Shown here in pieces: positions 37,614-64,000 of a stretch of DNA of 64,000 bases. Every line of letters starts with the position of its first letter. The stretch's first letter is position 1. Below the pieces are notes generated by a model that searched no databases, was not told the origin of the DNA, and was given only the letters and a program-made list of their open reading frames with translations. Source of the stretch: a bacterium (GTDB lineage: Bacteria > UBA8248); the NCBI GenBank assembly GCA_965199855.1, contig OZ241326.1, positions 736,001 through 800,000 on the forward strand, given 5' to 3'. Made by a program: the position numbers and the translations under genes.

Positions 37614-37814
37614 TCATCGCATGAACCGCCTCAAGTCCGCGCTCCCCGTCCCCTTCCCCCCGCCCGCGCGCTCGAGCGCCAGGCCGGCCTCGAGCGCCTC
37701 CTGGTTGAAGCGGAACTCCTCCCAGGAGCATCCGGCGAGAAGGTGCGGGGGGAGGCCGTAGGCTTTGGCCTGAAAGTGGATGAGCGCGAGGAGGTCGCGC
37801 CTCGCCCTACGGAA
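37614..37814 (-). other. Startless +1-frame ORF: putative frameshift extension of the tail assembly chaperone
   Basis: Reads FRRARRDLLALIHFQAKAYGLPPHLL... to TGA at 37614; entered via TTTC just before the chaperone stop. Confidence 0.55.
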
Positions 37815-38196
37815 ACGCGCCGCCTTCGGGCGCGTCCTCCCCGGTCGGCGGGGCGGCCGCCTCGCCCTGCAGCGCCGTGACCGCGCTGAAGATGGCGTCG
37901 GCGTCCCCGGGGGCGAGCTCGTAGATGCTGAGCTCGTCGGGCAGGCAGCGCGCCGGCTCCTTTTCCGTCATCGAGCCGCGCTCGGGAATGAAGCAGCGCC
38001 GCAGGACGCAGCGAATCCACTCCCCCGTCAGCGCGTATTGCGCCTCCTCGTCCGCCGCCGCGTCCTCCGCGGCGCCGGCGATGAGCTTCGGATGCGCCGC
38101 CAGGTCGAGCAGGTTGGGCGCGCGGACGAAGCCCCTGAGCCCCGAGGGCAGGGTGACGGGCCTGCGGCCCCGGTTCCTGTATTCCGATATCTCCAC
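37807..38196 (-). CDS. Putative phage tail assembly chaperone
   Basis: Directly downstream of the tail tube gene; N-terminal VTLPSG; ends TTT CCG TAG. Confidence 0.6.
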   Translation of the reverse strand: MEISEYRNRGRRPVTLPSGLRGFVRAPNLLDLAAHPKLIAGAAEDAAADEEAQYALTGEWIRCVLRRCFIPERGSMTEKEPARCLPDELSIYELAPGDADAIFSAVTALQGEAAAPPTGEDAPEGGAFP

Positions 38197-38251
38197 GAAA
38201 AATCTCCCTTTGGCTTTCGATGAAGGAAGGCGCGCCCGGACGGCGGGCGGC

Positions 38252-39391
38252 TCAGGTGAACACGATCTTGAGTTCGTCGTCGCCCGCGTCGCGCGTCAGG
38301 CGAAACGGGGCGTCGAAGGTCAGCACGCCGTCCCGCTCCCCGAATCCCAGATCCGCGTATTGGCACTTGGGCGCGGTGATGGAGCAGACGTTCCCCGCGC
38401 TTCGGCCGACGCGGACGCTCAGGGGAAGCCGCTCGCCGCGCTCCCAGTCGCCGAAGACGTCCTCCGCGGCCCTGAGCACGGCTTCGGGGTCGAAGGAGCC
38501 GGAGGGGGCGCGGCCCGTCACCAGCGCGGCCACGTGCCCGCCGGAGGCGTTCGCGCTCTGGCGCAGCGCCACGCTGTTGTTCATCTCGAAGCGGACGTTC
38601 GCCGCGTCGAAGTGGAAGCCGCCGAGCGAGAAGCCGCTCATGAGCGCGGGGGCGGGCAGCTGGGCGTCGTAGGAGTCGCCCGAAAGAAGGGGCGCGTCGC
38701 TCACCTCGAAGTCGGCCGCCTCGAACTCCCAGTCGATGGTGGGGACGCCGTCCAGGGGGCAGTTGACGGAGAAGGTGCCCATGCAGCCCAGATACATCAC
38801 CCGCAGGCCGTCAACGTAGGCCGTCAGGCAGAGCCGCGCGTAGCTCGCCCTGTCGGAGGAGGGCGCGTAGGCGACGGAGACGCCCGCGGAGATCGTCTCC
38901 GCCATCGCGCACCCCCGGAAGAGCAGCCCGTAGTCCGGCGCGACGCCGGCGGCGCCCGAGCCCCTGAGCTCGGTGGAGAAGGAAAGCCGGGCGGAGCGCC
39001 TGCCCGGCAGCGCGGGAAGCGGCGAGAGGCTCGCGTCCTTCACGGCGCGCTCGAGCCGCTCCACGCTGACCTCGTGGGAGAAGCCGCCCGCCCGGAAGAG
39101 CTCGGAGGCGCGGGCGGGCCGATCCAGCAGATAGGCCGTGCCCGAGGCGGGCCTGGCGTCCCAGGCGGCGTCCACGGTGAGGGTGTCCGAGGCGGCGTCG
39201 AAGTCGCGCACCCGCCGCTTCTGGCCGAGGCCCGCCCCCCGAATCGTCCGCAGCACCGCGCCGTTCCAGTAGTCGTCGCGCTCATCGAGCGCGGCGTCCG
39301 CGAGGGTGGAGGCGCCCGCGGCGTCCGCCGTCAGCTCCTTCTCCTCCGTCGCGCCGATAGTTTGCCGATCCGTCAGCATCGCGTTGCTCAT
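38252..39391 (-). CDS. Phage major tail tube protein (siphovirus type)
   Basis: SFSTELRGSGAAGVAPDYGLLFRGC, GSFDPE, GDDELKIVFT C-terminus; RBS + ATG at 39391. Confidence 0.75.
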   Translation of the reverse strand: MSNAMLTDRQTIGATEEKELTADAAGASTLADAALDERDDYWNGAVLRTIRGAGLGQKRRVRDFDAASDTLTVDAAWDARPASGTAYLLDRPARASELFRAGGFSHEVSVERLERAVKDASLSPLPALPGRRSARLSFSTELRGSGAAGVAPDYGLLFRGCAMAETISAGVSVAYAPSSDRASYARLCLTAYVDGLRVMYLGCMGTFSVNCPLDGVPTIDWEFEAADFEVSDAPLLSGDSYDAQLPAPALMSGFSLGGFHFDAANVRFEMNNSVALRQSANASGGHVAALVTGRAPSGSFDPEAVLRAAEDVFGDWERGERLPLSVRVGRSAGNVCSITAPKCQYADLGFGERDGVLTFDAPFRLTRDAGDDELKIVFT

Positions 39392-39558
39392 TCCCCGCTC
39401 TCCTCCCGCTTCGGGTTTCCCTTGGGCGCGGGGGCGGCCTGCGCCCCCCGCGCCTCCTTCTCCGTCCTCCCCTCCCCGGGCGTCCCTCCGCCCGGGGCGG
39501 ACGCGGCGCGGCGCGCTTCCGCCGGCCGCGCCCGCGTCTCCTCCTTCGCCGGCTTCAA
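39388..39558 (-). CDS. Small low-complexity protein in the virion operon
   Basis: GAGGAGGGAGAGG RBS, TTG start, stop overlaps the tail tube ATG (ATGA); not in the ORF track. Confidence 0.4.
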   Translation of the reverse strand: MKPAKEETRARPAEARRAASAPGGGTPGEGRTEKEARGAQAAPAPKGNPKREESGE

Positions 39559-39570
39559 GCCTCTCCCTCC

Positions 39571-40104
39571 TCAGCCGCGCCGGATCCGCTCTATGGCCTC
39601 GATGCGGATTTCGGCGTAGTGGCAAAGCGCGCCCCCGAACGTCCTGAGCTCGATCAGGTCCACCTGCGGGGGCCGCAGACGCTCCAGGGAGCGGACGCGC
39701 GGCGCGCCGGACTCATCGAGGAGGCGAAGGGCCCGCTCGTCCCGGAAGCGGCCGCAAATCTCCTCGATCGCGTCCTGGAAGGCGAGCTCGCTGCCCGCCG
39801 CGTCCTCCGCGCCCATGATTCCGAACAGCAGGAAGGTGTGGGTTCTGCGGTTGAGTCCCCCCGGAGCGAAGCCGCCCCCCGCGCGCGAGCCGATGGAGGC
39901 GGCCTCCTCCCGCGCCCTTTCCCGCGTGAGCGTCCAGCCCCGGATCTGGACGACGCCGCCCCCCGCCTCCCAGCGGAAGAGGTCGAGATAGCCGCCCAGG
40001 TCGGCCGACCAGCGCTGATAGGCGTGCACCCGCCCCGCTCCCGCCGCCTTCGATACCTCCGCCAGAATGGCGTCGCCGATTTCCCTGTATCGAGATTCAG
40101 CCAC
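39571..40104 (-). CDS. Putative tail completion/terminator protein
   Basis: Position before tail tube; C-terminal FGGALCHYAEIRI resembles phage tail-completion proteins. Confidence 0.55.
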   Translation of the reverse strand: MAESRYREIGDAILAEVSKAAGAGRVHAYQRWSADLGGYLDLFRWEAGGGVVQIRGWTLTRERAREEAASIGSRAGGGFAPGGLNRRTHTFLLFGIMGAEDAAGSELAFQDAIEEICGRFRDERALRLLDESGAPRVRSLERLRPPQVDLIELRTFGGALCHYAEIRIEAIERIRRG

Positions 40105-40597
40105 CGACTCTCTCCGCGATCTCTCTCGCCAGCGCGTCGAGGCGCCGCTCGATGCGGCTCCCGTTCTCATCCAGCACGCGGGCGAACATGAAGCGGCCCC
40201 GGACGCCCCGCCCGGCTATGGCGCGCGCGGCGAGAAAGGCCGCGCTCTGCGGGCTCCCCCCGCGCGGCGCCAGCTTCCGCGCCGCCCACAGGTAGAGGGG
40301 CGACCCCTTCCTCCAGGGAGGAAGGGGGCTTCCCGGCGGGCGGCCGAACTCCACGGGGGCGGCGTAGGGGCAGCGCGAGGCGACCATGCCGGTCACCGCG
40401 CCCCGCCCGTCTCCCCGGATCCCGGTGAAAACGCTTCCCCGCAATTCGCCGGTCGCCCCCGAGGGCGTCCTCCTCCTCGCCTCGCGCCCGAGCGTCTCCA
40501 CGACTTCGGCCATCGCCTCGCGCGCGAGCCGGAGAACCTCCGCCTCGAGAGCGCCCGGCCGCGCGTTCAGGAGTCCCCCGAAATTCCCTCGCCGCAT
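40097..40597 (-). CDS. HK97 gp10-like neck/tail-completion protein
   Basis: TPSGATGELRGS, YAAPVEFG, ARAIAGRG motifs. Confidence 0.7.
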   Translation of the reverse strand: MRRGNFGGLLNARPGALEAEVLRLAREAMAEVVETLGREARRRTPSGATGELRGSVFTGIRGDGRGAVTGMVASRCPYAAPVEFGRPPGSPLPPWRKGSPLYLWAARKLAPRGGSPQSAAFLAARAIAGRGVRGRFMFARVLDENGSRIERRLDALAREIAERVGG

Positions 40598-40613
40598 TCG
40601 CCCTCTCCTCCGC

Positions 40614-41324
40614 CTAGCGCTCGTCGGGCGCGCCGCGCGTGACGTATTCGCCGCGCCGCCCGGAGAGGCTCGCGTCCCAGTCGAGCGAGGCGCCCGCGGC
40701 CGCCGCCGGCTCGCCCTCCTTCTGGCCGACGTGGTTTCGATACTTGCGCTCGAGCTCCCGCGCCAGGCGCGCGTATTCGCCGGACTTGCCCGGGTAGTCC
40801 GCCGAATCCGCCGCCAGGGTGGGGGGCGCGGACTGGGCGAAGCGGCGCGCCAGAAGGCCGCAGCCCTCGGCGGCGGCGAGCCAGGCCACGGCGGTCAGGT
40901 CGTTTCGGGGGACGCTCGCGCCCTCCTCGTCCGCCGCGTGTCCGATCGTGTAGAACAGGCGCGCCCGCTCGCCCCTGCGCGGGACGCTCCGCAGGAGCCT
41001 GAGCTTCGCGCCGGGGGCGCCCTTCGCGTAGATGCTCCAGTCGCGCCTCTGCAGGAAGGAGGGCGTCCGCCTTCCCTGGGGATATTCCACCGCCCGGACG
41101 ACCGAGAGGGAATCGTCCCAGTCTCCGGGCAGGGGGAAGTCGAACGAGGCGCCGTCGCCCTCGAAGTCGGCGAAGGCGGCGCGCGGCCTGTCCCGGCTGT
41201 AGCGCGCGAGGGCGGCGCTCACCAGGCCGGCGTAGTCCGCCTCCTCCAGCCCGAACTCCCGGGGCAGCGCGCCCGCCTTCAGGAGCGCCTTCGCCTCCTC
41301 GATGATCGTCTGCCTGCTGGCCAT
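40614..41324 (-). CDS. Putative head-tail adaptor protein
   Basis: ALARYSRDRP, VEYP, LAADSADY; lies between capsid and neck genes. Confidence 0.55.
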   Translation of the reverse strand: MASRQTIIEEAKALLKAGALPREFGLEEADYAGLVSAALARYSRDRPRAAFADFEGDGASFDFPLPGDWDDSLSVVRAVEYPQGRRTPSFLQRRDWSIYAKGAPGAKLRLLRSVPRRGERARLFYTIGHAADEEGASVPRNDLTAVAWLAAAEGCGLLARRFAQSAPPTLAADSADYPGKSGEYARLARELERKYRNHVGQKEGEPAAAAGASLDWDASLSGRRGEYVTRGAPDER

Positions 41325-41352
41325 CCGCGTCTCCTCTCCGCCCTCGGGCGGC

Positions 41353-41694
41353 TCAGGTCTTGAGCGCGAGCTTCGCCGAGAAGGTGAACGAGGCGCCCTC
41401 CCCTCCCACCGCCCAGGCGAGCCTGAGCCAGGGGCCGAAGTTCTCGAGCTTGAGGAGGGCCTTGCCCGCCTCGTCGATTCGCGCGGCCCTCGCGTGGACG
41501 AACGCCGCCTCATCGGCCGCCGGGCCGACCTCGACCGCCAGGTCGAGAGCGGGCGAGGCGCCCGAGGCCGCCGTCACGTCGATGAACAGCAGCGCCTCGG
41601 CGAAGCGGCTCACCTCGAACGCCGCGCTGCTCCCGCCCGCGGCGCGGGCCGCCGGGGGCGCGAGGACGATGGCGTGGACTCTCCTGTCGGGCAT
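41353..41694 (-). CDS. Small beta-rich virion protein (possible head decoration)
   Basis: Immediately after capsid; AGGAG RBS; IDVTAASGASPALD...WLRLAW pattern. Confidence 0.5.
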   Translation of the reverse strand: MPDRRVHAIVLAPPAARAAGGSSAAFEVSRFAEALLFIDVTAASGASPALDLAVEVGPAADEAAFVHARAARIDEAGKALLKLENFGPWLRLAWAVGGEGASFTFSAKLALKT

Positions 41695-41723
41695 GGCTTC
41701 TCCTGTGAACGAGGCCGCGCGGG

Positions 41724-43790
41724 CTAGCCGGCGGGCGCGCCGCGGTAGAAGCCGCGGTAGTCCAGGACGGCGCCGCCGTAGACGTGCCTGATCTTGTAGC
41801 GAATCTTGTCCGCGCTGAATCCGCTGCCGGCCGAGGGGTTGTCCTCGATGAACAGCTCGGGCTCGCGCATGTCGTCCATGAAGCCGATCTCGATGGTGTC
41901 CATCAGCCCCGGGTCGGCGACGAGGAACCAGTTGTTCGCGTCGGTGAACTCCGGCACCCACAGGGGCTCCAGCCCCAGGCGGTTGATGACGCTGGGCTGG
42001 GTGGAGTTCTCTCCCGATACGACCTTGACGGAGGACTGGGTGACCTCGAAGGCCTCCTCGAGCAGCTCCGTCGGGTGGAGCAGATACCTGGGCCGCGCCT
42101 GCGCCGCCGCCTCGACGCCCGCCTCCCCGTAGAAGGTCTGCTGGCCCATCGCCTTGACGCCGGCGATGACGTTGTCGTAGGCGAGCGCGTTCGCCGACGT
42201 GTTGTTGTGGCTGGCGTGGAACAGGGCGGTTCCGTCATAGATGGCGGCGTTGCCCGTGAGGAAGCCGAAGACGAAGGCGTTCAGGGTGCGCTGCGCCGCG
42301 CGCGCCAGACGCTGGGGAATCATGCGGATCGCGCCCATGTCGTCGTTCTGTATCATCTCCCAGGTGAGCTCCTCGATGCCGCCGCGCTTGGACACGGAGT
42401 AGGTCACCTCCTCGTCCGTCGGAGAGGCCAGCGCGGGATACGACGCCTGCTCGGCGACCGTCTGCAGGTCGCCGTAGCCGCCCACGCGCACCCGGCGGTT
42501 CGTCCGGAAGTCCTTGACGGGCGCGGAGGAGGAGACGATCTTCCTCCACTGGTGAAACCGCTCGTCGCGGAAGTCCCGCAGCATGGCGCGCCGGATGGAA
42601 TCCCCGAACGCCTCGCCCCAGGAGCTCGCCTGAAGGGAGGCGGAGAGGCGGCGCGCCCCGCCGCGCTCCTCGCCGGCGCGGGGATGGTGGAAGGTCTCGG
42701 CGAAGAACCGGCCCGGGGTGAGGCGCCGGCCCGTGAAGTCCTGAAACGCCTCGCTCATGAAGCGGTAGGGCCGCTCGCCCTCCAGGGGCGCGTCGGACGA
42801 GCGCCAGAGGCCGTCCAGCGCCGCCCTCTTGCGATCCGCCTCGTCCCGAACCGCCTCCGCCCGCGCGCCGAACCCGCGCAGCGCGCCGCTCGCGGTGAGC
42901 TTCTCGAGCGTGGCGGCCTCGAGGCGAATCGCCTCCTCCGCCTCCGCCTCCGAGCAGCCGCCGCCGAGCTGCGCGCGCAGCTTCTCCCGCACGGGCTCCG
43001 GCAGGGCGGAGGCGTCGAGCTTCCGCGCGAGCGTCCGCCGCGCTCCCTCCTCCCGCGGCGCCTCCTCCGGCGCGCCGCCGTCTTCCCCGAGGTCCAGCTC
43101 GAGGCCCGCCTCCTCGCAGGCCGCGAGCAGCTGCCGCGGCGTCCAGCGCCCGCCGGGCTCCCCGGCCGATTCAGACGCCGCGCTCTTCAGTTTCCTCGCC
43201 AGTTTCTCGAACATCTTCGCCTCCGATCTGGTGGAATGGTGGGCGGCGAGACCCAATATCCCGCCTCCGAGCCTGCCCTTGTGCACGATATCGACGGAAT
43301 GCACCGCCAGAATTTCCTCGAAATGCAGGACGAGCCTCTCCTCCTCCTCGCGGAACTCCGCCCGGGCGAGCACGTCGAAGGAGAACCCGAACGGCTCCTT
43401 CAGCCCCCGCGCCAGGGCGTCCTGGGCGAGCGCCTGAAACCACGCGGCCGAGCGCGCGACCGCGAACCTGCTCATCAGCCCCTCCTCGCCCATGCGGACG
43501 CCGCGGTGCCAGCCGACCAGATCCCGAATGTCGGGGCCGCCGGGGGGCGCGTGGTTCGCGAACGCCTGCGCGCCCTCGAACAGGGGCGCGGCGCGGCGCA
43601 GCACCTCCCGGGGCAGGAACCACTCCCCGTCCTTCGAGTAGCCCGGCCGCGCGATGAGCACCTCGAAATCCCAGACCTCGCCCCCAGGCCCGGACGCCTT
43701 CGAGAGGGGGCGGACGAGGCGCCCCCGCAGGCGGAGGGGACGCGCCTCCCCGCCCGCGCGCGCCCGCGTTCGATTCACCCGTCTTTTCAA
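41724..43790 (-). CDS. Fused prohead protease-scaffold-major capsid protein (Mu gpT-like capsid domain)
   Basis: N-terminal FANH...VGW...G.SFD...SIDIV protease-like region; C-terminal TWEMIQNDDMGAI..IP..LARAA, LFHASHNN, WFLVADP, IRYKIRHVYG...DYRG; GGAGG RBS + TTG. Confidence 0.8.
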   Translation of the reverse strand: MKRRVNRTRARAGGEARPLRLRGRLVRPLSKASGPGGEVWDFEVLIARPGYSKDGEWFLPREVLRRAAPLFEGAQAFANHAPPGGPDIRDLVGWHRGVRMGEEGLMSRFAVARSAAWFQALAQDALARGLKEPFGFSFDVLARAEFREEEERLVLHFEEILAVHSVDIVHKGRLGGGILGLAAHHSTRSEAKMFEKLARKLKSAASESAGEPGGRWTPRQLLAACEEAGLELDLGEDGGAPEEAPREEGARRTLARKLDASALPEPVREKLRAQLGGGCSEAEAEEAIRLEAATLEKLTASGALRGFGARAEAVRDEADRKRAALDGLWRSSDAPLEGERPYRFMSEAFQDFTGRRLTPGRFFAETFHHPRAGEERGGARRLSASLQASSWGEAFGDSIRRAMLRDFRDERFHQWRKIVSSSAPVKDFRTNRRVRVGGYGDLQTVAEQASYPALASPTDEEVTYSVSKRGGIEELTWEMIQNDDMGAIRMIPQRLARAAQRTLNAFVFGFLTGNAAIYDGTALFHASHNNTSANALAYDNVIAGVKAMGQQTFYGEAGVEAAAQARPRYLLHPTELLEEAFEVTQSSVKVVSGENSTQPSVINRLGLEPLWVPEFTDANNWFLVADPGLMDTIEIGFMDDMREPELFIEDNPSAGSGFSADKIRYKIRHVYGGAVLDYRGFYRGAPAG

Positions 43791-43878
43791 GGGAGCCTCC
43801 TTTTCTCCTGTCCCCGCGATTGTCGATTTCCGCGCCGCGCCGGAGGCCGTCCGAAGGGGCGGCGGGCGCGACGGCGAC

Positions 43879-43933
43879 AATCTAGGACAGGCGGACCCGG
43901 AGGCGGGCGGCGCAAATGCGGGCAAATGCGCGC
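43879..43933 (-). promoter_or_regulatory. Putative activator-dependent promoter of the capsid/tail island
   Basis: GCGCGCATTTGCCCGCATTTGCGCC (43933-43909), 24 bp, then TAGATT (43884-43879). Confidence 0.65.
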
Positions 43934-45373: not shown

Positions 45374-45418
45374 ACATTTTTCGCTTGCGTTTCCCGCGCG
45401 AAGGGGCGATATTGACAG

Positions 45419-49687: not shown

Positions 49688-49743
49688 GAGGGGGGAGCGA
49701 AGCAGTTTTCCTTCGGCCGGACGCCCTGAACAACCCGGCCGCT

Positions 49744-52801: not shown

Positions 52802-52803
52802 TC

Positions 52804-53445
52804 TCACTCCCTCCTGAGCATTCGCCGGCCCGGCGCCCGCGGAGGCGCGGTTCCCCCGGCGGCGGGGGCCAGCATCCCCTCGCTCCGCGCCAGGGACTCG
52901 GCCAGCCGCGCGTAGGCGCAGGCGAAGCCGAAGTGGTTCTCGTTGCGCTCGTAGGACAGGACGGTCTCGCCCGAGGCGCGCAGGCGCGGCCTTTTCCGCA
53001 GGTTCATCAGGTGGCGATCCACGCGGGCGAGGAGCGCCTCCTCCTCCGCGCTCCCGGGCGTGGGCATCAGGACGCGCTCCGGCCCCTGGTGAAGCTCCTC
53101 CACCAGATGATCCAGCAAATCCTCGCGGCTCACGCGCGCGTGGCGGCGCGGCGCGCCCAGAAACGCGACCTCCCTGATCCGCGCCTCCCCCTCGGCGTGC
53201 CGCCAGATGAAGCCGCCCTCCGGATGCAGGTCATAGACCGCCCGCGCGGCCTGGGTGTGGGGGCCGCCGTCGATGACGAACGCCTCGACCCCCAGACCCT
53301 CGAACACGGCGCGGCACCGGGGGAGGAGCCGCTCGATGGGCGGCTCCTCGAAGTATATCCACCGGACGCGCCGCCCCGCCTCGCGCACCGCGAGAGCGCA
53401 GACGTCGCCCGTGTCGATTCCGCAGAAGCGGTGGGGCGCGCTCAC
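52804..53445 (-). CDS. Terminase large subunit, stand-alone C-terminal nuclease domain
   Basis: CGIDTG, FVIDGGP, ENHFGFACAY RNase H-like motifs; own GGAGG RBS and GTG overlapping the upstream TGA. Confidence 0.65.
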   Translation of the reverse strand: MSAPHRFCGIDTGDVCALAVREAGRRVRWIYFEEPPIERLLPRCRAVFEGLGVEAFVIDGGPHTQAARAVYDLHPEGGFIWRHAEGEARIREVAFLGAPRRHARVSREDLLDHLVEELHQGPERVLMPTPGSAEEEALLARVDRHLMNLRKRPRLRASGETVLSYERNENHFGFACAYARLAESLARSEGMLAPAAGGTAPPRAPGRRMLRRE

Positions 53446-54500
53446 GCGGGCGCCTCCGCCGGCGGATAGGGCGCGGCGGCGCGCAGGCTTTCCAGCAGCT
53501 CCCGCGTGACGGGTTGCGCGTCTCCCGCGTCGGGCATGGCGAGCGACGAGCAGCGGAAGCGCGCCTTCTCGCTCGGAAGCCGCGCGGCGGCCCACTTCGC
53601 CGCGATCCGGCGCAGGCGGACGGCGCCGACCGCGAGCTGGGAGAGGCGGTAGCTCCTGTGCCGGGGCAGGGCGCGCGCCGCCTCCCATCGCCCCGCTCCC
53701 CGCGCGAGCGGCGCGCCGCACGCCGGGCAGACGAGCGCCGAGGCGCGCAGGACGCGGGGCCAGTGCTCCTCCAGGGCGCTCTCCGCGCGGCAGGCGGGGC
53801 AGCGCGCGAGCCAGCGCCTCTGATCCCCCGCCTCGTACATGGCGTGAATGCCCGCCCCGGGCGTTCTCCCCACCGCGAGGTTCAGCGTCAGGGCGAGCGG
53901 CGAGGCGTCGAGGCGGTCGTTCGACCACGCGAGGTTCTCCGGCGGGAGGTCGTCCACCTCGTCCCGAATCAGCACGTCGAGCGGCAGCGAGATGGCGCTG
54001 CCCACGTCCCGGAGCCCCAGGATGTAGAGGAACCGCGACCCCCCGGGGCCGGGAAACTCCTTGAGTCCCCTCGGCGAGGCGCCCCGGTAGGCGCCGTGGC
54101 GCATGAGGCGGGCGATTCGCCCGCGCCGCAGCACCGGGCGCACGCGCGTCTGATCGAAGCGGTTGGCGAAGTCCTGGTCGGGCAGAAAATAGCCCACGTT
54201 CAGGCGGCGGACGATGACGCCGTAGAGCGCCGCGCCTATCGCCAGGGTGGTGAGGCCCACCTGCGCCCCCTTGAGGATGGTGATGGTCTCATCGGGCGCG
54301 CCCCTCTCGAAGACGGCGTCGAGGGCGGCCGCGGGCTCCAGCAGCGCCTCGCGCCCCTCGAAGGTGAAGGGGCCGCCGTCGGCGCGAATCTCGCTCGCGA
54401 GAAACCGCGCCAGCCCGCGCGCCGCGCCGGCGAAGCGCGCGGGGGCGCCCGCCGCCAGGGCGAGGCTCGGGGCGCGAATGATTTTTCGGGACTTTCGCAA
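53442..54500 (-). CDS. Terminase large subunit, ATPase domain (lambda gpA-like)
   Basis: ILKGAQVGLTT Walker A, VLIRDEVD Walker B, GDQRRW, two CPAC Zn motifs, G.W.A. Confidence 0.78.
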   Translation of the reverse strand: MRKSRKIIRAPSLALAAGAPARFAGAARGLARFLASEIRADGGPFTFEGREALLEPAAALDAVFERGAPDETITILKGAQVGLTTLAIGAALYGVIVRRLNVGYFLPDQDFANRFDQTRVRPVLRRGRIARLMRHGAYRGASPRGLKEFPGPGGSRFLYILGLRDVGSAISLPLDVLIRDEVDDLPPENLAWSNDRLDASPLALTLNLAVGRTPGAGIHAMYEAGDQRRWLARCPACRAESALEEHWPRVLRASALVCPACGAPLARGAGRWEAARALPRHRSYRLSQLAVGAVRLRRIAAKWAAARLPSEKARFRCSSLAMPDAGDAQPVTRELLESLRAAAPYPPAEAPA

Positions 54501-54551: not shown

Positions 54552-54606
54552 AATATAGGGCGCGGACGCCGCCGTCCGCGAGGCGCAAATGCGGGCAAAT
54601 GCGCGC
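54552..54606 (-). promoter_or_regulatory. Putative activator-dependent promoter of the terminase/portal island
   Basis: Identical 25-mer GCGCGCATTTGCCCGCATTTGCGCC (54606-54582), 24 bp, then TATATT (54557-54552). Confidence 0.65.
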
Positions 54607-55465: not shown

Positions 55466-56755
<1,290 letters not shown>

Positions 56756-56957: not shown

Positions 56958-57215
56958 TCAGGGCAGCAGTTTTATCAGGGCGACGTTCAGACTGACGATG
57001 CCGAGGGCCACGAGCAGGATGAAGCGATACATGTCCGTTCGCAGTTTTGCGTGGTCGAGCTTCAGTTCGTTGCAGACCTCGGCGAGGTCGGCCTTGGTGG
57101 CGACGTTCTCGGCGACGGCGTCGCGCACGGTGGCGACCACGGCCTCGGCCTGGGTTTCGTCGAAGCCGGACTCCTTGAGCAGCTTCGTCGCCTTGAGGGT
57201 GTCGAACGCGGGCAT
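56958..57215 (-). CDS. DUF1640/CCDC90-like coiled-coil membrane-anchored protein
   Basis: FDTLK..K.L.ESGF...QAEA, ATKADL, C-terminal TM; GGAGG RBS. Confidence 0.75.
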   Translation of the reverse strand: MPAFDTLKATKLLKESGFDETQAEAVVATVRDAVAENVATKADLAEVCNELKLDHAKLRTDMYRFILLVALGIVSLNVALIKLLP

Positions 57216-57524
57216 GGCCTCATCCTCCGGCCATCTACTATAGCCCGTAGGCTTCGCCGACGCAAGCATCCGCGTCATAGGCGGGTTTTCAGGCGGCATT
57301 CGCCGGAGGGAAACTCCCGCCGTCATCGCAGCGGTATTTTTGAACGGCAAAACGATGCGGTCTTGTCGTCCTCGTTCCGACAGGCGCAGGCCAAAGGCCG
57401 CCCTTCGGGACGCGGAGACGGCGGCGCAGGCGGACGCGGCGGCGGGCGAGCCTTGACCGCAGACGCGCTCCACGTCCGCGGAATGCCCGCAGTTCCGGCT
57501 CTTCATCGTCGGCGCGCCGCCCGT

Positions 57525-57896
57525 CTATGCGGCGCCTCCTTCCTCCGCGTCCAGCAGGCTCCGCAGCTTGGGAAGGAGATCGGGAGCGCCGACCTCGATC
57601 ATGTCCCAGATGAGGTCGTCGTTCATGCCCAGATAGCCATGAGCCAGCTGGTTTCGCGCGCCGATGATGTCACCCCAGTGAATCCCGGGATGCCGCTCGC
57701 GCGCCGCTTCCGGGACGTGGGTCGCCGCCTCGCCGATGAGTTCCAGGTTTCGCAGGGTGGCGTCGTAGGTGCGCGCGTCGGCGACGAACGCGGCCTGATC
57801 CAGCCCGGCCGTATAGGAGAGCGCCCTCTCGCCGAATTCGATCATGTCCCGGATGTAGAAGAGCCATTCGCGCCCCTGATGAACGCCGTCAGACAT
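57525..57896 (-). CDS. HepT-like (DUF86, HEPN) ribonuclease toxin
   Basis: LELIGEA, RNQLAHGY (RX4HXY). Confidence 0.88.
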   Translation of the reverse strand: MSDGVHQGREWLFYIRDMIEFGERALSYTAGLDQAAFVADARTYDATLRNLELIGEAATHVPEAARERHPGIHWGDIIGARNQLAHGYLGMNDDLIWDMIEVGAPDLLPKLRSLLDAEEGGAA

Positions 57897-58179
57897 GAAT
57901 GAGATCCCGCTCGACGTAGGGGCGCAGCTCGGCGCGCACCATCTTGTCGGTCGCCAGATCGACCTTTCGTCCCAGCAGATCCTCGATGTAGAACTGCGCG
58001 CCGAAATACTTCGTCGTCGTCGTCCGCCCCTCGAAGCGCACGAGAACGTCGAGGTCGCTCCCCTCGCCCGCCTCGTCGCGGGCGAAGGAGCCGAAGATGG
58101 CGAGCTCGGCCACCCCGAAGCGCTCCGAGAGGGTCGCCTTGTGCGTCCGGAGCAGATGAAGCACGTCGTCTCTCTTCAT
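57889..58179 (-). CDS. MntA-like minimal nucleotidyltransferase antitoxin
   Basis: FGSFARDE...SDLDVLV, LLGRKVDL. Confidence 0.9.
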   Translation of the reverse strand: MKRDDVLHLLRTHKATLSERFGVAELAIFGSFARDEAGEGSDLDVLVRFEGRTTTTKYFGAQFYIEDLLGRKVDLATDKMVRAELRPYVERDLIHV

Positions 58180-58282
58180 CGTCCCCTCCCGCGGCGTTCG
58201 GAAACGGCGCGCCGCCCCTCGCTTCGACCGCCCGGCGGCGCGGACGATTCCCCTCCGATGCTCGGGGCGCGCGGGCCGGATG

Positions 58283-60154
58283 TCAACCCCCGCCCTCTCG
58301 CGCCCCCCGCGGAGCGGGGGCGGACGCCGCGAGCTTCTCGAAATGCGCCCGCGCCTCCTCGGGCAGGGAGGTGAAGCGCAGGGTGAGCCGCTCCCCTTTC
58401 GCCTCCACGACCTTCGCGTAGATTTCCGGGACGCCCGCCTCCTCCGCCACCCGCAGCATGAGGTTCGTCCCCCTCCCGAAGGCGGCCTCCGCCGACGCTT
58501 CCGCGCAGTTGCGCGAGACGCGCTCGATGCGGCCGCGCGCCGCCCGCTCCGACACGCGCTTTCCCTCCACCTCGAAGATGCGCGCGGGAAGGGGCGGCTC
58601 GACGTCGGCGAACGCCTCGGGCGGGGGCTCGGGCATCTTGCAGGCGTATTCGCCGCTCACCCCGCGCGCCTCATAGACGCGCACCGGCTCGGCCATGCCC
58701 TTGAAGAGCAGATCCTGCGCCTCGCCCACCCGGACGACGTCCCTCGTCTTGCGCCAGGTCTCGGGGCTGATGAGCACCTGCCCGCTCACGGTGTTCGACT
58801 CGATGCGGTAGGCCATGTTGATGGCCGCGCCCATCGCGCCGTATTTCGTACGCTTCTCCGAGCCGATGTTGCCGACGATCACCTCGCCCGTGTTGACGCC
58901 GATGCCCATGTGCAGCTCGGGCAGCCCGCTCGCGCGCTGCTCCTCGTTGATGCCCGCCAGCGCCCACTGCATCCCCACCGCGCACGCCACCGCGCGCACC
59001 GGGTCGTCCGGGGCGGCGAGGGGCGCGCCGAAGAACGCGAGAATCCCGTCCCCCTGGAACTCGTCGACCGTCCCCCGGTAGCGGGTGATGATCTCCACCA
59101 TCGGCTCGAGGAAGCGGTTCACCATCTCGACGACCTCGTCCGGCCCCAGGCGGTTGGAGAGCGCGGTGAAGCCCCTGAGATCCGAGACCAGGAAGGTCAC
59201 CTCGCGCACCTCGCCACCCAGCTTGAGGCCGTCGGGCGAGTTGAGCAGCTCGTCCACGATCTCCTCGCTGATGTAGCGCCCGAAGGTGTCGCGGATGAAG
59301 TCGCGCTGCCGCAGCCCCTCGACCATCCCCTCGAAGGAGTCGGCGAGGCGGCCCGCCTCGTCGTTCCCGCGCTTCGCGGGAATCGACACGTCGAGATTGC
59401 CCCGGCTCACCTCCGCCGCCGCCGCGGTGAGGCTTCTGAGCAGGCGCAGCATCCGCGCGGAGGCGAACCCGAAGAGGACGAGGCCCAGCGCCAGCAGCGC
59501 CGCCGTGAAGCCGAAGAGCCGGATGGTGTTCATCCGCACCTGCTCGGCCACGGGGTTGGCGAACTTGTTGAGCATCAGGATGGCCACCACCCGCCCGTTC
59601 AGCTTGAGCGGCGCGTTGACCTGGAGGAAGCGGTCGAACTCGCGATCCCCCAGCCTTCCGCCGAAGAGCCGCGAGTGCATCATCTCGCCCCTGTTCCAGG
59701 TGTCGTTCGTGGCCTTGTAGGTGGCGGGGAAGAGCCTGTGGATGTGGGCGTCCTCGCCCACCTCGAAGCCGTCGTGCCCGGCGGCGACGTAGTGGTAGCG
59801 GCCGTCGGCGCCCCGGCGCATGATGACGGCGTTGTCCACGCCCGAGCGCAGCTTGAGGCGCCGCAGCGCGCCCAGGACGGCGCGGTAGGCTTCCGTGTTC
59901 CTGTCGGCGGGCCTTCGCAGGCTGTGGACGGCTTCCACGTCCATGAAGGCCGCCCCGCGCTCGGCGAACACCTCGAGCTTCGAGGCCAGCAGGCGGATCT
60001 CGTAGGCGCGGCTCGACTGGAAGTATTTGTACGCGAGGGGAACCATGGCCACGAGGAGAATCGCCAGGAAAAGCGCCAGGTTCTTGAAGACGATGGAGCG
60101 GTGGAACCCCCCGGGCTTTCGGACGCCCGGCTCGGACGCGCTCGGCTTCGACAT
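58283..60154 (-). CDS. Membrane class III adenylate/guanylate cyclase with HAMP domain and PilZ-like C-terminus
   Basis: Two TMs, HAMP (DEAGRLADSF), SDLRGFT, FQGDG, GIGVNTG, GNIGS, INMAYRIE. Confidence 0.88.
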   Translation of the reverse strand: MSKPSASEPGVRKPGGFHRSIVFKNLALFLAILLVAMVPLAYKYFQSSRAYEIRLLASKLEVFAERGAAFMDVEAVHSLRRPADRNTEAYRAVLGALRRLKLRSGVDNAVIMRRGADGRYHYVAAGHDGFEVGEDAHIHRLFPATYKATNDTWNRGEMMHSRLFGGRLGDREFDRFLQVNAPLKLNGRVVAILMLNKFANPVAEQVRMNTIRLFGFTAALLALGLVLFGFASARMLRLLRSLTAAAAEVSRGNLDVSIPAKRGNDEAGRLADSFEGMVEGLRQRDFIRDTFGRYISEEIVDELLNSPDGLKLGGEVREVTFLVSDLRGFTALSNRLGPDEVVEMVNRFLEPMVEIITRYRGTVDEFQGDGILAFFGAPLAAPDDPVRAVACAVGMQWALAGINEEQRASGLPELHMGIGVNTGEVIVGNIGSEKRTKYGAMGAAINMAYRIESNTVSGQVLISPETWRKTRDVVRVGEAQDLLFKGMAEPVRVYEARGVSGEYACKMPEPPPEAFADVEPPLPARIFEVEGKRVSERAARGRIERVSRNCAEASAEAAFGRGTNLMLRVAEEAGVPEIYAKVVEAKGERLTLRFTSLPEEARAHFEKLAASAPAPRGAREGGG

Positions 60155-60190
60155 CCTCTCTCGCCTCCGGCGACGGCTCGGAAGGGCATG
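60122..60190. repeat. Direct repeat copy A (contains cyclase RBS and ATG)
   Basis: CGGCTTCGACATCCTCTCTCGCCTCCGGCGACGGCTCGGA recurs near 61290 and 62930. Confidence 0.85.
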
Positions 60191-60405
60191 ATACATCATT
60201 CCCGCGCGGGAGGCGAAGGCGGGGGCGTTCGAGGGGATGCGATTGCGGCGGACGGCTTCAAGCCCCGGCGCCGGAAAACGCCCGCGACCCGGACGCTGCG
60301 GGGAGGCTTTCGTCAAGAAAGAGCGCTGAAAAATACCCGCTTCATTTTTCCTCCCATGCGGCGCCGGACGTCCCGGATTCCCTGACCGGGCTGGCGCTTG
60401 AATCG

Positions 60406-61176
60406 TCATTTCGCTCCCGGTTCTGGTTTGAAGCATTGGTTGGAGTCCAGAAATTTCTTCTCCTCGGCGTCCGCCCGAAGACCCCAGTAAAGTTTCAGGG
60501 CCGCCCACGTCTTCAGATAATCGCAGTGGTATGCCCGGTTCGGCGGAAGCCAGTGGACGGGGTCTTTGCTCCCCTTGGATCGGCTGCTTGAGGACGAAAC
60601 GGCGATCAACGTATCGGGGTTGGAAAGATCATTCGCGTATTCTCGCCGCTGCGCGGGCGTCCAGCCGGCGCCGCCGCTGCGATGCGCTTCGGCCAACGGA
60701 ATGAAATGGTCAATGTCCAGATATTTGGGATCGGTGAATACGCGACCCGTATACGGATCCTCCCATCGACCGGAGACGACCTCGCAGCCCGCCGCGTCGA
60801 GTTTCACGGGTCGGGTGCTCTCGGCTATCAGGACCTCATGCCTGGTATTCTGGCAGTCGCCGTCCTGATCGATCCAGCCCCCGTAGAGCTCCCTGCTGTA
60901 AGGAACCGCCTGGGCGGCCTCCCCGGATGAAGAACGATTCGTTTCCTTGGGGACGTTTCCCCGCCTCCGCCGGCCAAGCATGGGAGTTTCCGGCGAGCCG
61001 GCCCCGGGACGATGGCATCCGCCCCCTTTCCCGCCCCGATGGCAGCCGAATCTATCGAGTCCCCCGCCGCGAGCATGTGCGGGTTCGATTGAGACATGGG
61101 AGAGAAAGGCGAGGGTGAGAAAAAATACGGCTACGACAGAATTGCAAAGCTGATACGATCTGCCGTCTGCGGCCAT
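60406..61176 (-). CDS. Secreted HNH (DUF1524-like) endonuclease with YHYH-like N-terminal motif
   Basis: TM/signal, GGGLDRFGCH, DGDCQNTRHEVL, DIDHFIPLAEA, RSKGSKDP..WLPPN. Confidence 0.8.
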   Translation of the reverse strand: MAADGRSYQLCNSVVAVFFLTLAFLSHVSIEPAHARGGGLDRFGCHRGGKGGGCHRPGAGSPETPMLGRRRRGNVPKETNRSSSGEAAQAVPYSRELYGGWIDQDGDCQNTRHEVLIAESTRPVKLDAAGCEVVSGRWEDPYTGRVFTDPKYLDIDHFIPLAEAHRSGGAGWTPAQRREYANDLSNPDTLIAVSSSSSRSKGSKDPVHWLPPNRAYHCDYLKTWAALKLYWGLRADAEEKKFLDSNQCFKPEPGAK

Positions 61177-61271
61177 CTTTTTCTTTCCTGTTTGCTCAAG
61201 CCTTACGCAAAAATAGCAAAAGCCCAATCCGGGAAATCGTGCTCCCGCTCTTCCGAGAAAATCCCCCGTTT

Positions 61272-61388
61272 GACGCCCGGCTCGGACGCGCCCGGCTTCG
61301 ACATCCTCTCTCGCCTCCGGCGACGGCTCGGAGCGGCATGACGCATCAACGCGGCCCCGGTGATTCCTTCATATCGACAACTCTTCCT
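61272..61388. repeat. Direct repeat copy B
   Basis: Matches copy A over ~65 bp and copy C over ~100 bp. Confidence 0.85.
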
Positions 61389-62829
61389 GCTTCGCGTCCG
61401 GTTGCTGGAAAGCGGCTCTTTTCCCCGGCGCTACCCTGAGAGGAGGGACTTTCACCGGCAAGCCTTCGGACTCGAAGAACTGCTCGATGGTGGCCACCTG
61501 AACGCGGGGAAACCTTCCGAAGTCGCATTCGTAAAAGCCCGCCGAGGCGGCCTGGGCCGTCATCGGCTGCGTCGGCGGCGCGAGCGTGATCAAAAAGCCC
61601 ATCGCCGCGCCTTCGGCGTCCAGGGTGGCCGTCAGCTCTCTGACCATGCCGACGCCGACGTTTTTGCCTCCCTTGACGGAAACAACGCAGAGTTCGTGTT
61701 TTTTCTCGCCCGTCATAATGTAGAAGAATCCATCTACGCCGCCGTCCGCCCCCTTCTTGCCCAAGCGCCATGGCTTGCCGTCGGGCATGAGGGTAACAGC
61801 CCAGAGTTCAAACTGATGCTTGTCCTGATCGGCCAAAGCGCGCGCGCCGGGGATATCCTGGGGCTGACCGTGAATCTCGTATCTCGCGCCCGGGAAAGCG
61901 CCTCGGAGCCGATCCCGAATCTCCCGAACGGCCAGATGGGTGATATCAATCCCCATCCATCGGCGGCCCAATTTCTCGGCCGCATGAACTGTCGTGCCGC
62001 AGCCGCAAAACGGGTCGAGCACCATATCGCCGGGGTTGGAGGAAGCCGAGACTATGCGCTCAAGCAGGGCGAGAGGCTTTTGCGTAGGATAGCCCAGACG
62101 CTCCCTTGATGAAGGCGCCAGAACAGGGATGCGCCAAACGGCGTCCAATGGAACGGCGGAATCTTCCCCGGTCTCCACTGTCGGATTTCTCGCCCCGCCT
62201 TCTCCAAAGGTTGCCCGCTGCCTTTTGCCCTTCCATCTTTTCCGGGAACTTTCCGACTGCTCGCGGTAAAGCTCGTTGAATGTTCCGGGCGCCGCGTTCC
62301 TGGAGTAATAAAGAATGATATCGTGCATTCGCTGAAACCTGCGCGCCTTCGTGGGCCAGCGACGATAGCTCCAGACAATCTCATTCCGGAAGCGATCTTT
62401 CCCGAACACGGCGTCCAGCAGAATTTTGAGATAATGGCTCGCCGTCGGGTCGCAGTGCAGGTAGAGGCTGCCCGTGGGCTTCAGCACCCGATGCAGTTCC
62501 AGCAGCCGCGCGGCCATCATCGCCAGATAGGCCATCATGTCGTTTTCACGCAAAAAAGAGCGCATCGCGTTCAGCATTCCGGCCGCGTCGGAATGACCCG
62601 AGCGCAATACCTCCTCGAAAGCCTCTTCCGCCTTCCGCCCCCAGTGCCAGGTGTCGTCGAACGCTTCGATCTGCGCGCCGCTGTTTTCTCCGGCGGGGGA
62701 CTTGAAAAGCACGTTGTATGCAGCGTTGGAATTGAACGGAGGATCGAGATAAATCAAATCCACGCTTTCATCGGGGACGCTTTCGCGCAGCACCGGCAGG
62801 TTGTCGCCATAGTAGAGCTGATTGGTCAT
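61369..62829 (-). CDS. N6/N4 DNA methyltransferase (beta class) with C-terminal Mrr-like domain
   Basis: YLDPPF, GYPTQKP, DPFCGCGT, then KKGADGGVDG...VSVKGG; lower GC. Confidence 0.88.
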   Translation of the reverse strand: MTNQLYYGDNLPVLRESVPDESVDLIYLDPPFNSNAAYNVLFKSPAGENSGAQIEAFDDTWHWGRKAEEAFEEVLRSGHSDAAGMLNAMRSFLRENDMMAYLAMMAARLLELHRVLKPTGSLYLHCDPTASHYLKILLDAVFGKDRFRNEIVWSYRRWPTKARRFQRMHDIILYYSRNAAPGTFNELYREQSESSRKRWKGKRQRATFGEGGARNPTVETGEDSAVPLDAVWRIPVLAPSSRERLGYPTQKPLALLERIVSASSNPGDMVLDPFCGCGTTVHAAEKLGRRWMGIDITHLAVREIRDRLRGAFPGARYEIHGQPQDIPGARALADQDKHQFELWAVTLMPDGKPWRLGKKGADGGVDGFFYIMTGEKKHELCVVSVKGGKNVGVGMVRELTATLDAEGAAMGFLITLAPPTQPMTAQAASAGFYECDFGRFPRVQVATIEQFFESEGLPVKVPPLRVAPGKRAAFQQPDAKQEELSI

Positions 62830-62926
62830 ATCGACGCGCCTCCGGTCATGTCCGCTCCGCCCGACCCTTCGCGCAACTTAAAGCAAACTCCGGCCGAAGG
62901 AAATCCCGCGCCGGGACAGGCGCGGG

Positions 62927-63028
62927 CGCGCCCGGCTTCGACGTCCTCTCTCGCCTCCGGCGACGGCCCGGAGGGGCATGACGCATCAATGCGGCCCCGG
63001 TGATTCCTTCATATCGACAACTCTTCCT
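62927..63028. repeat. Direct repeat copy C (includes a duplicate of the MTase 3' end)
   Basis: GCATGACGCATCAA.GCGGCCCCGGTGATTCCTTCATATCGACAACTCTTCCT shared with copy B. Confidence 0.85.
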
Positions 63029-63357
63029 CCGCTCGAATCGTCGGCCCGCGCCGGGGCGTCCTCCCGCAGAAGAATACCATACGTTTCCCCGGCTCTTGCG
63101 GGGATGCGGAAAAATCGCCCCGGCCCCCTTCGCCGCGGGAAGCGGGGCGTCTCTCGCGGGAGGGGAAATCAGAGCCTTCGGGAGCCGCCGCCCTTCATCC
63201 GGTTCTCGTCGAAAAACCCCTCCGGCGGCCCGAATATGGCGATCAAGCGCGAAAGGAGCCGGCCCCGGCTTCTCGATGCCGGCCGTCCGCGCGGGGCTGT
63301 CTCCAATCCCGCCGTCGCCGCGCCGGCAAACGAAAGGGAGCGTCAAAACGTCCCCCC

Positions 63358-63927
63358 TCAAATGCGCTCCTCCAGGGCGCGGGCGGCCTCCGCGGTGATC
63401 TCCTCCACCTTCGCCAGCACGTCGGGATGGTCGAGGAGCGACTCGCGCACCTCGGCGAGAATCGCCATCTTGGCGGCGGCGAAGCCGTCCTCATACCGGA
63501 GCCTCAGCCGTCCCGCCGAGATGCGGGTGCGCTCGAGGGCGTTCACCATCCCCGCGAGCTTCTCCGGCGTGAGCTCCTCGAAGGATTCGCTCCTCATGCG
63601 CGAGACGGCCTCGACCGCCTGCGCCATCAGCATCCGCCGGGCGGCGGCCGCCGCCTTCTCGCCCGGGTCGCTCCCCTCGCCGTCGTAGGCGACGACCTCC
63701 TCGATGAGCTCGTCCACCATGGCCTCCACGCGCCTGCTCCTGCGGATGGCCGCGCGCAGCCTGCCGTTGCGGTTCTTCATCGAGCTGATGGAGATGCTCT
63801 CTCCCGTCGCCTCCTCGAAGGCGCGCGCCACCTCCCTGTAGGGCTTCCCGGCGGCGAGCATGGAATCGACCAGCTCCTCGGCGCCGTATTCCACGATCTT
63901 CGACCTGCGGCCCCGCTTTCTCTCCAT
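63358..63927 (-). CDS. Mu gp27/DUF3486-like putative small terminase subunit
   Basis: RGRRSKI N-terminus, HTH-like region (Y.EVA...ISISS), helical C-terminus; TGATG coupling to upstream gene. Confidence 0.65.
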   Translation of the reverse strand: MERKRGRRSKIVEYGAEELVDSMLAAGKPYREVARAFEEATGESISISSMKNRNGRLRAAIRRSRRVEAMVDELIEEVVAYDGEGSDPGEKAAAAARRMLMAQAVEAVSRMRSESFEELTPEKLAGMVNALERTRISAGRLRLRYEDGFAAAKMAILAEVRESLLDHPDVLAKVEEITAEAARALEERI

Positions 63928-64000
63928 CACAGCGCCCCCGCGAGAATGTCCGCCGGAAGCGGCACCGCGCCCTCGAGCGCGCCCCGCCCCCGGCGGGTGA
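63927..64000 (-). CDS. C-terminus of a Mu gp26-like protein (cut by window end)
   Basis: Reads TRRGRGALEGAVPLP...AL-stop, resembling the T..G...EG...P end of Mu gp26-like proteins that precede DUF3486. Confidence 0.4.
   Translation of the reverse strand, partial: TRRGRGALEGAVPLPADILAGAL

Follow-up and report, generated by a model that had tools for sequence, protein, structure and literature searches.

We analysed a 64,000-nucleotide (nt) stretch of bacterial DNA (G000:C1:736001-800000; hereafter the window), part of a genome assembled as a single contig of 3,043,534 bases with 67% G+C, and found that it carries phage virion genes in three islands separated by host genes, with further genes of the same kind elsewhere on the chromosome. 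This confirms the observation made in a preliminary description of the same DNA and most likely reflects a phage-derived, chromosomally fixed and independently domesticated particle system of the gene transfer agent (GTA) type, whose genes are dispersed and co-regulated. We put the genomic part of this reading at a probability of about 0.9, and the full claim that the system makes DNA-filled particles at about 0.65. Genes were chosen by the GC content of third codon positions (GC3) and then scanned against Pfam and PHROGs. The comparison set comprised 22 other genomes of the genus, six of them complete and fetched for layout (seven genomes together with G000); all compared genomes are metagenome-assembled. 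Public sequencing runs containing the stretch are mostly labelled sponge metagenome, with no RNA run listed for the capsid part, and related public records and the sources of homologous proteins are labelled Nitrospinota bacterium or Candidatus Tectomicrobia bacterium. The island genes and promoter sites are the following (window positions unless stated otherwise; aa, amino acids; ORF, open reading frame):

37614-38196, minus strand: putative tail assembly chaperone pair G/GT, from its position after the tube gene and its recoding layout.
38252-39625, minus strand: tail tube protein (PF18906, 2.1e-9; phrog_290, 4.7e-14).
39571-40170, minus strand: orf199, a virion-module protein without family in head-tail joining position, recognised by conservation in the genus.
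40097-40597, minus strand: HK97 gp10-like tail completion or neck protein (phrog_5, 3e-11; PF04883, 21.9 bits, cut-off 21.4).
40614-41513, minus strand: orf299, a virion-module protein without family, recognised by conservation in the genus (conserved from about 41330).
41353-41715, minus strand: 120-aa ORF between the capsid gene and orf299 (GC3 frame plot; weak match to phrog_9522, 4.7e-4), possibly a decoration or connector protein.
41724-43790, minus strand: prohead protease/scaffold fused to an HK97-type major capsid protein, 688 aa (PF25209, 1.4e-46; phrog_29592, 6.9e-122; phrog_4523, 1.9e-49).
43911-43929, minus strand: promoter motif GCATTTGCCCGCATTTGCG, followed after 26 nt by TAGATT, 139 nt upstream of the capsid start; at this position in 7/7 genomes.
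51455-52807, minus strand: portal protein, 450 aa (phrog_10963, 1.2e-43), whose start overlaps the nuclease stop.
52804-53445, minus strand: nuclease domain of the large terminase (TerL) as a separate gene, 213 aa (phrog_675, 6.3e-8, profile positions 362-547 of 576).
53442-54500, minus strand: TerL ATPase domain as a separate gene, 352 aa (PF05876, 4.1e-16; phrog_675, 1.7e-49).
54584-54602, minus strand: promoter motif, followed after 26 nt by TATATT, 102 nt upstream of the TerL ATPase start; in 7/7 genomes.
63358-63930, minus strand: small-terminase-like (TerS-like) or Mu gp27-like protein, 190 aa (phrog_426 'terminase small subunit', 5e-6, full length).
63927-64000, minus strand: 3' part of a gp26-like 110-aa gene (GC3 0.94; frame plot), the full gene reaching window-equivalent position 64259.
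Genome positions 801259-801723, past the window end: endolysin, lys (PF00959, 2e-12; phrog_7, 7.3e-20).

Island 2 had been described as a TerL ATPase gene, a TerL nuclease gene and a portal gene, and the family matches uphold this assignment. The large terminase is split into two translationally coupled genes, with the nuclease start (GTG or ATG) overlapping the TGA stop of the ATPase gene (GTGA/ATGA) behind a GGAGG in 7/7 genomes; the split is kept in all seven complete genomes of the genus and seemingly also in related genera. Stand-alone nucleases of about 205-238 aa occur in 47 public clusters, all at least 50% identical and without annotated name, and a shallow literature search for a conserved split terminase returned nothing specific. 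The distant relative G032 has a different, unsplit TerL of 560 aa. Stop-start overlaps and Shine-Dalgarno (SD) sites are conserved in the seven genomes, in agreement with the coupled overlaps and ribosome-binding sites noted earlier, and the ratio of non-synonymous to synonymous substitution rates (omega) is 0.11 for the ATPase gene and 0.052 for the portal gene.

Island 3 runs from the protease-capsid fusion to the putative tail chaperone. The fusion gene starts with a TTG behind AAGGAGG, and both start codon and SD site are kept in 7/7 genomes (omega 0.10); one of its matching families, phrog_4523, is annotated 'major head and protease protein'. In a comparison with 50,697 phage records, the nearest matches covered only the C-terminal 43% of the protein and none covered 80% or more, the nearest being the Microcystis phage Mae-JY22 (43% identity) and lambdoid protease-capsid phages (30-31%). 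The likeness to Mae-JY22 and to the lambdoid mEp043 and mEp213 lies in the capsid domain, and those are free, contiguous phage genomes. The tube protein, for which the longest ORF is given above and the conserved portion begins near 39400, is 68-78% identical in six genomes (omega 0.10), and the HK97 gp10-like gene has an omega of 0.26. Orf199 (199 aa; 75-87% identity in the genus, omega 0.13) has homologs at 29% within the contiguous clusters of G032 and G027, and homologs of orf299 (65-80% in the genus, omega 0.13) come after the capsid gene in the same two genomes at 33-35%. In the chaperone region, G occupies 37807-38196 (-) and encodes 129 aa, and a T extension of 65 residues, marked by a switch of GC3 frame, reaches 37614 in the +1 frame and lacks a separate start codon. 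Six relatives keep the T frame open, with 72-85% conservation, and a conserved TTTCC immediately precedes the G stop in 7/7 genomes, an arrangement suggestive of a G/GT-type programmed +1 frameshift. Of the names first given to the genes of this island, protease-capsid, completion and tube are borne out by family matches, whereas 'decoration', 'adaptor' and 'neck' are positional labels only; the chaperone stands by its conserved recoding layout in the position after the tube gene, although it has no family match. A further ORF, orf100 (37429-37731), found no support as a gene.

Island 1 had been named gp26-like plus DUF3486. The second name is supported by the TerS/Mu gp27-like match to phrog_426, but the match to PF11985 (1.3e-4, 22.8 bits) falls below the cut-off of 28, and the gp26-like ORF is without a family match. 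Both genes are retained, the TerS-like gene with an omega of 0.10 and the gp26-like gene at 83-87% identity in four relatives. Past the window end, the endolysin gene is coupled to a gene for a 144-aa holin (PF11351 'Holin of 3TMs, for gene-transfer release', 1.3e-11, 45.5 bits, cut-off 24.8). Another ORF once taken for an island gene, orf131, was rejected as an antisense shadow (-) of a glycine-zipper or 17-kDa-antigen-like lipoprotein gene (L117:4051-4542 (+), window-equivalent 66051-66542) that diverges from the lys promoter; the element range given below includes the omega of orf131, 0.319. ORFs can mislead at 70% GC, and this one has a GC3 of 0.91. Across the islands GC3 is 0.85-0.96, host-like, compared with a GC of 0.54-0.63 in the low-GC islets between them, as the preliminary description had judged by eye.

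With the tail genes of G032, which form a contiguous cluster, as queries against G000, we found a fourth island at genome positions 2,581,916-2,586,393. It consists of five ORFs of 359, 168, 403, 313 and 231 aa, none with a Pfam or PHROG name; the third, i4_403, resembles TipJ/Phage-tail_3 clusters by language-model features, which we treat as a lead only. A tape-measure gene of 607 aa lies 2.6 kb past these tail-tip ORFs (2,589,032-2,590,855; four tape-measure PHROGs, best 2.1e-12). Island 4 is 1.78 Mb away from islands 1-3, and its flanks, Ppx/GppA and a hexapeptide transferase, are the same in 6/6 complete relatives. In a related public contig, L058, the order is capsid ... tube, chaperone, tape measure, i4_359; therefore the ancestral order would be canonical, with i4_359 in distal-tail position. 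The tail tip and tape measure at 2.58 Mb, together with the endolysin and holin at 0.80 Mb, are further islands of the sort whose existence the preliminary description had considered. Its statement that the window holds no tape measure is correct, as is the absence of an integrase near the islands; for transposase and repressor genes, window positions 1-36000 were not rechecked. The interval that separates the tape measure from the last tail-tip gene (genome 2586393-2589032; 2.6 kb, GC 0.60) contains four plus-strand ORFs of about 180 aa without family match, and in other species this gap measures only 0.6-1.5 kb.

The islands are linked by a shared promoter. The motif GCATTTGCCCGCATTTGCG consists of two 10-bp direct repeats and is followed by a TAnAnT box and, some 50-110 nt further, by an SD site and start codon. 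It is present before the capsid, TerL ATPase and i4_359 genes in 7/7 genomes, before the tape measure in 4/7, before gp26 in three and before lys in G000. Among 31 sites, the spacer to the -10 box is 26 nt in 24 and 25 nt in three, and no box was detected by regular expression in four, two of which are capsid promoters with TAGTTT. Because no -35-like hexamer was found at 17 nt upstream of the -10, we suggest that an activator site lies at about -57 to -39. The window has just two exact copies of the motif, at 43911-43929 and 54584-54602, and shuffled sequences gave 0 matches. Across 41 genomes, the motif pattern was found 15-39 times in 18 island-bearing relatives and once in G019, and 0 times in G008, G009, G015 and 18 genomes outside the genus; the reversed control gave 0 in all 41. 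Allowing up to two mismatches, G015 has three matches, directly upstream of the capsid gene, TerL and the tail-tip island, and G019 has six, two of them at islands. From this distribution the islands look like the core regulon of the motif, and its copies in repeats like a later spread.

The mechanism that we propose starts from a siphovirus-type prophage, still contiguous in related lineages, whose roughly 20 genes would have been split into at least five to six transcription units with host genes between them, in two regions of the chromosome separated by more than 1 Mb. The proposed units are endolysin and 3TM holin; gp26-like and TerS-like genes; TerL ATPase, TerL nuclease and portal; protease-capsid to tube and G/GT; the five tail-tip genes; and the tape measure. 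One regulator would bind the tandem repeat GCATTTSCCCGCATTTGC (about -57 to -39, in promoters without a recognisable -35) and switch all units on together. Procapsids would then form from the protease-capsid fusion and the portal, the two-piece terminase with the TerS-like protein would fill them with DNA, the 607-aa tape measure and the +1-frameshift chaperone would serve in tail assembly, and holin and endolysin would release the particles. Given a dispersal over more than 1 Mb, joint packaging of the genes is impossible whatever the head size. As the genes cannot share one particle and no integration or replication genes lie alongside them, such particles could not propagate the element, and their cargo would most likely be host DNA.

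The interleaved layout is a fixed property of the genus. Its order is cofE, cupin, island 3 (chaperone ... capsid), DAC, osmC, HIBADH, two luciferase-like monooxygenase (LLM) genes, island 2 (portal, TerL), yajQ (not always present), amtB, a cyclase gene, a variable segment, island 1 (TerS, gp26), p176, holin and lys, and, further on, LysR and a gene of 1536 aa. Up to amtB this layout was found in 6/6 complete genomes; beyond the cyclase it was seen in at most five, the region in G010 lying outside the fetched part. Identity in the six complete relatives is 53-91% for phage genes and 64-91% for host neighbours. A collection scan added 15 further loci with cofE, cupin, island 3, DAC, osmC, HIBADH and LLM; orthologs in relatives, for which the preliminary description had suggested a test, thus occur in both sets. 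From 36.5 to 56.4 kb, all junctions are spanned by contigs from three other studies (short 'joints' in which one side has 20-23 letters were taken as repeat noise), and one 21-kb contig (X7, record 15) carries cofE, island 3, the host block, island 2 and amtB in one piece; misassembly at the island junctions is excluded. Outside the genus, G023 and G043 show amtB next to TerL and portal, then LLM and DAC, then capsid or tail genes, so that the host block separating portal and capsid predates the genus. That block is lacking in L056 and L058, and the contiguous ancestral order is preserved in G032, G027, L058 and L056.

These data bear directly on whether the islands could be parts of one large, still mobile prophage with host-like morons, or an assembly artefact. 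Islands 1-3 span about 28 kb, within the capacity of a T=7 head, and low-GC cargo lies between them. Against this, the tail-tip and tape-measure genes are far off in another part of the chromosome, the order of the host genes is unchanged in relatives lacking the islands, the islands have a constant position and constant flanks in species whose proteins are about 75% identical, no integrase is near, and the six complete genomes and the contigs of the three other studies show the same junctions; for this genus we consider the explanation refuted, its remaining probability being negligible. Features of an intact temperate prophage are likewise missing: the islands are non-contiguous, the only two tyrosine recombinases (PF00589) of the genome lie at 1.60 and 1.86 Mb, far from all islands, and the adjoining genes are host or defence genes. 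Nor does the set resemble a Mu-like transposable phage, as no sheath or baseplate family was found and the tail module is made up of tube, G/GT and tape measure. A genome search with PF02914 (Mu transposase) gave no match, but the control genomes gave none either. The Mu links are the gp27 match below the Pfam cut-off and matches of one alignment (A1) to Mu GpT capsids in a PDB profile search at a non-significant E=0.2; PDB profile searches of two further alignments (A2, A3) gave no useful match. In the preliminary description the genes had been read as a non-excisable, vertically inherited, particle-producing system of Mu-like ancestry; the genomic evidence speaks for the first two attributes, whereas Mu ancestry is weak, and the tail is siphovirus-like and the TerL and capsid lambdoid-like.

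Presence of the parts is all-or-none within the genus. The capsid fusion, portal, TerL ATPase and i4_403 genes are each present in one copy in the same 20/22 relatives, with identities among the carriers of 75-80% (capsid), 67-80% (i4_403), 80-89% (portal) and 74-84% (TerL ATPase), and the i4_403 ORF is 401-403 aa long and free of stops in 20/20 genomes. The other two, G008 (99% complete) and G009 (95% complete), are without all four marker genes and have the host genes in the same order. Both retain small remnants, those of G009 being a 34-residue TerS fragment and, just upstream of amtB, a degenerate TerL promoter motif. From this host backbone and these remnants it follows that the absence is a secondary loss. 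Omega was estimated in IQ-TREE with GY+F3X4 codon models (fast search, 4-7 taxa). For 19 element genes it was 0.052-0.319, median 0.13, the top value belonging to the mis-called orf131 and the next being 0.262; for 15 host neighbours with similar tree lengths (1.2-3.7 substitutions per codon) it was 0.048-0.196, median 0.097. The values are thus far below 1 and host-like, as the preliminary description had anticipated for a maintained system. Descent was assessed from maximum-likelihood trees of 16 taxa for six island-3 proteins (1761 columns) and six linked flanking host proteins (1489 columns), whose patristic distances agree closely (r=0.98, slope 1.03, 120 pairs) and which share a deep backbone.

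Several observations weigh against this reading. The element is dispensable, as its loss from G008 and G009 indicates; these two may be sisters, and their co-loss a single event. The portal gene has stops in G015 (G015:C31:16099-17449), where the motif still stands at three islands; in G023, of another genus (L109, contig C132), the portal, nuclease and i4_403 genes are broken and the capsid-to-chaperone segment is missing; and the TerL ATPase gene is frameshifted in G041 (G041:C1:3141644-3142662). Several of the 'virion' genes have no family match in Pfam or PHROGs: the chaperone ORF 37807-38196, orf199, orf299, the gp26-like ORF and, apart from its weak likeness to phrog_9522, the 120-aa ORF. 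The omega values come from 4-7 taxa with synonymous sites near saturation, which leaves the comparison of element with host as their sound part. The two trees differ at shallow nodes (Robinson-Foulds distance 10), and the approximately unbiased (AU) test rejects the topology of each for the other's data (p=0.030 and 0.008); the expected host-congruent phylogeny is found in the distances and the deep backbone, but strict identity of topology is rejected. Our reading is vertical inheritance, with close relatives having recombined to some extent; the difference at shallow nodes may also be noise. AlphaFold2 models from seven-row alignments were too poor for use as evidence, with a mean predicted local distance difference test score of 40.0 for i4_403 and 52.6 for i4_359; a Foldseek search with the i4_359 model returned nothing from the PDB at E<=0.001, its BFVD matches had template-modelling scores of at most 0.26, and a hint of a CBM/F5-8-type beta-sandwich domain, also at rank 24 in Atlas, was set aside likewise. 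The motif is not exclusive to the islands, G000 having 33 strict matches, five at islands, about 20 in a 0.6-kb repeat and several in a second repeat family, and could be part of a wider regulon. The shared regulator is a postulate, and the system is known here from genes alone, particle production and DNA transfer being deduced from them.

The same signs of decay, and the dispensability seen in G008 and G009, would suit prophage remnants that are defective, produce no particle and have persisted by chance or hitch-hiking. We nevertheless hold this to be very improbable. In the six complete relatives, 0/18 aligned element genes are interrupted, the one stop counted (orf199 in G019) being of a kind also seen in host-gene alignments; i4_403 is intact throughout its 20 carriers and omega is host-like; conservation also covers the promoter motif, the SD sites, the stop-start overlaps and the frameshift site; and where the system is lost, all its parts go together.

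The repeats that carry the motif raise a different question, that of what the particles would be for. The 0.6-kb repeat element of G000 has about 20 copies, 82-99% alike (for example, genome 837434-838094). One end bears the island motif together with GAGAAT and the other a degenerate second motif; the element also contains GACAAATTCA-type iterons and an AT-rich stretch. A second repeat family lies at window positions 9968-10200 and 13844-14100 (+), where the motif, with 1-2 mismatches, is accompanied by TATATT and a conserved stretch of about 150 nt; it has copies elsewhere (for example, genome 1129703 and 1384891) and no Rfam match, and may be a small RNA or another promoter-bearing repeat. 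Genes downstream of motif sites outside islands and repeats encode an S41 peptidase, a radical SAM protein, an MFS transporter and an SDR, and give no coherent picture. A system that is domesticated and co-regulated, as we propose, could still produce particles that do not serve random transfer, such as vehicles for packaging specific DNA, virions that help a satellite, or a lysis-linked killing or signalling device. The same promoter drives both repeat families, a TerS-like protein that could confer packaging specificity is retained, and selection on structural genes is silent on what is packaged. On the other hand, G015 and G019 have the motif almost only at islands, so that the system does not need the repeats; intact terminase, portal and capsid genes argue for DNA-filled heads; and no satellite-like element was seen adjoining the islands. 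We regard this alternative as unlikely. Less probable again is the idea that the motif is the mark of a dedicated 'GTA regulon', small repeats having carried it to 15-39 places in most species, or that the repeats mark preferred TerS packaging start sites. In the former case, induction of particles would also switch on dozens of other loci; in the latter, a domesticated phage would mobilise chosen parts of the chromosome, and the two-gene terminase would be part of that adaptation.

We then compared the GTA-type system proposed here with known ones. To our knowledge, few gene transfer agents are known, almost all of them in Alphaproteobacteria, and our literature search found, among the papers listed, no link between gene transfer agents and Tectomicrobia or Nitrospinota/Nitrospinae; a published survey of Tectomicrobia leaves phages unmentioned. 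RcGTA keeps a core cluster of about 15 kb and is controlled via CtrA/GafA sites, whereas here even the head-tail core is interrupted by host genes and the control element is a tandem repeat. It also belongs to another host phylum, and the gpA-type two-gene TerL, the protease-capsid fusion and the Mu gp27-like TerS set the present system apart by family, not by direct protein comparison. A link to it is the holin, as its Pfam family, PF11351, takes its name from GTA release. A run-off replication origin is associated with BaGTA; nothing similar was seen here, though no search was aimed at it. Neither BaGTA nor BhGTA/VSH-1 is homologous to the present system as far as tested. Domesticated defective prophages under purifying selection were reportedly described by Bobay et al. 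in 2014; these and PBSX-type elements share with it vertically inherited structural genes kept intact by selection but are single contiguous loci, whereas here the genes are dispersed, have a dedicated shared promoter and are lost together. With RcGTA and RcGTA-like elements of Alphaproteobacteria (Rhodogtaviriformidae), the system shares siphovirus-type head, tail and lysis genes chromosomally fixed at several loci, host inheritance, purifying selection and the lack of integration and replication genes; with BaGTA of Bartonella and BhGTA/VSH-1 of Brachyspira it shares, according to PMC9662315, independent domestication, genes partly outside the main cluster and conservation in the genus. Kogay et al. 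2022 (PMC9662315) list six criteria for GTAs and viriforms, of which the sequence evidence here supplies three, namely virion-like proteins, endogenisation at several loci and mostly vertical inheritance; the other three concern the packaged DNA, namely its length relative to the locus, its mostly random host origin and its delivery to other cells. The first applies through sequence similarity only (TerL, portal, capsid, neck, tube, tape measure, endolysin and holin), and the third was judged from a host tree built on linked flank genes, with the AU rejection of identical topologies described above.

If this reading is correct, a GTA has been domesticated independently in an uncultured sponge-associated lineage. 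The related lineages would then form a natural series from a contiguous prophage to scattered, host-wired genes, the motif with its fixed spacing would offer a clean cis-regulatory handle for finding the regulator, and the two species without the element would be natural knock-outs for comparison. Genome sequences alone would then suffice to recognise such systems, the telling signs being a distribution that is all-or-none, an omega like that of host genes and a promoter common to the units.

The blocks between the islands encode a diadenylate cyclase (DAC), an OsmC-like and a HIBADH-like protein, the two LLM proteins, DUF520/YajQ, AmtB and a HAMP-cyclase, and low-GC islets carry ParA, GmrSD_C, a methyltransferase (MTase)-Mrr fusion and HepT/MNT; island 3 is bordered by a cupin gene and CofE (PF01996, 5.5e-73). 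All this agrees with the yajQ, amtB, diadenylate cyclase, oxidoreductase and islet content, and with the end of island 3 at CofE, given in the preliminary description. The ORF orf474 is probably a wrong-frame reading of a second LLM paralog and was dropped. Directly behind the portal gene, at 49700-51450, an islet with a GC of 0.54 holds ParA and two small ORFs; it is absent in 6/6 complete relatives and replaced by a different 1.3 kb in a contig from another study, which makes this a variable cargo hot-spot. Beside island 1 (56958-63361; L001:3400-7000) lie strain-variable defence-type genes, namely HepT/MNT (PDC-S09), GmrSD_C and an N6/N4 MTase-Mrr fusion, with a C5 methylase just outside the window; these genes are common at most to the closest relative, G001.

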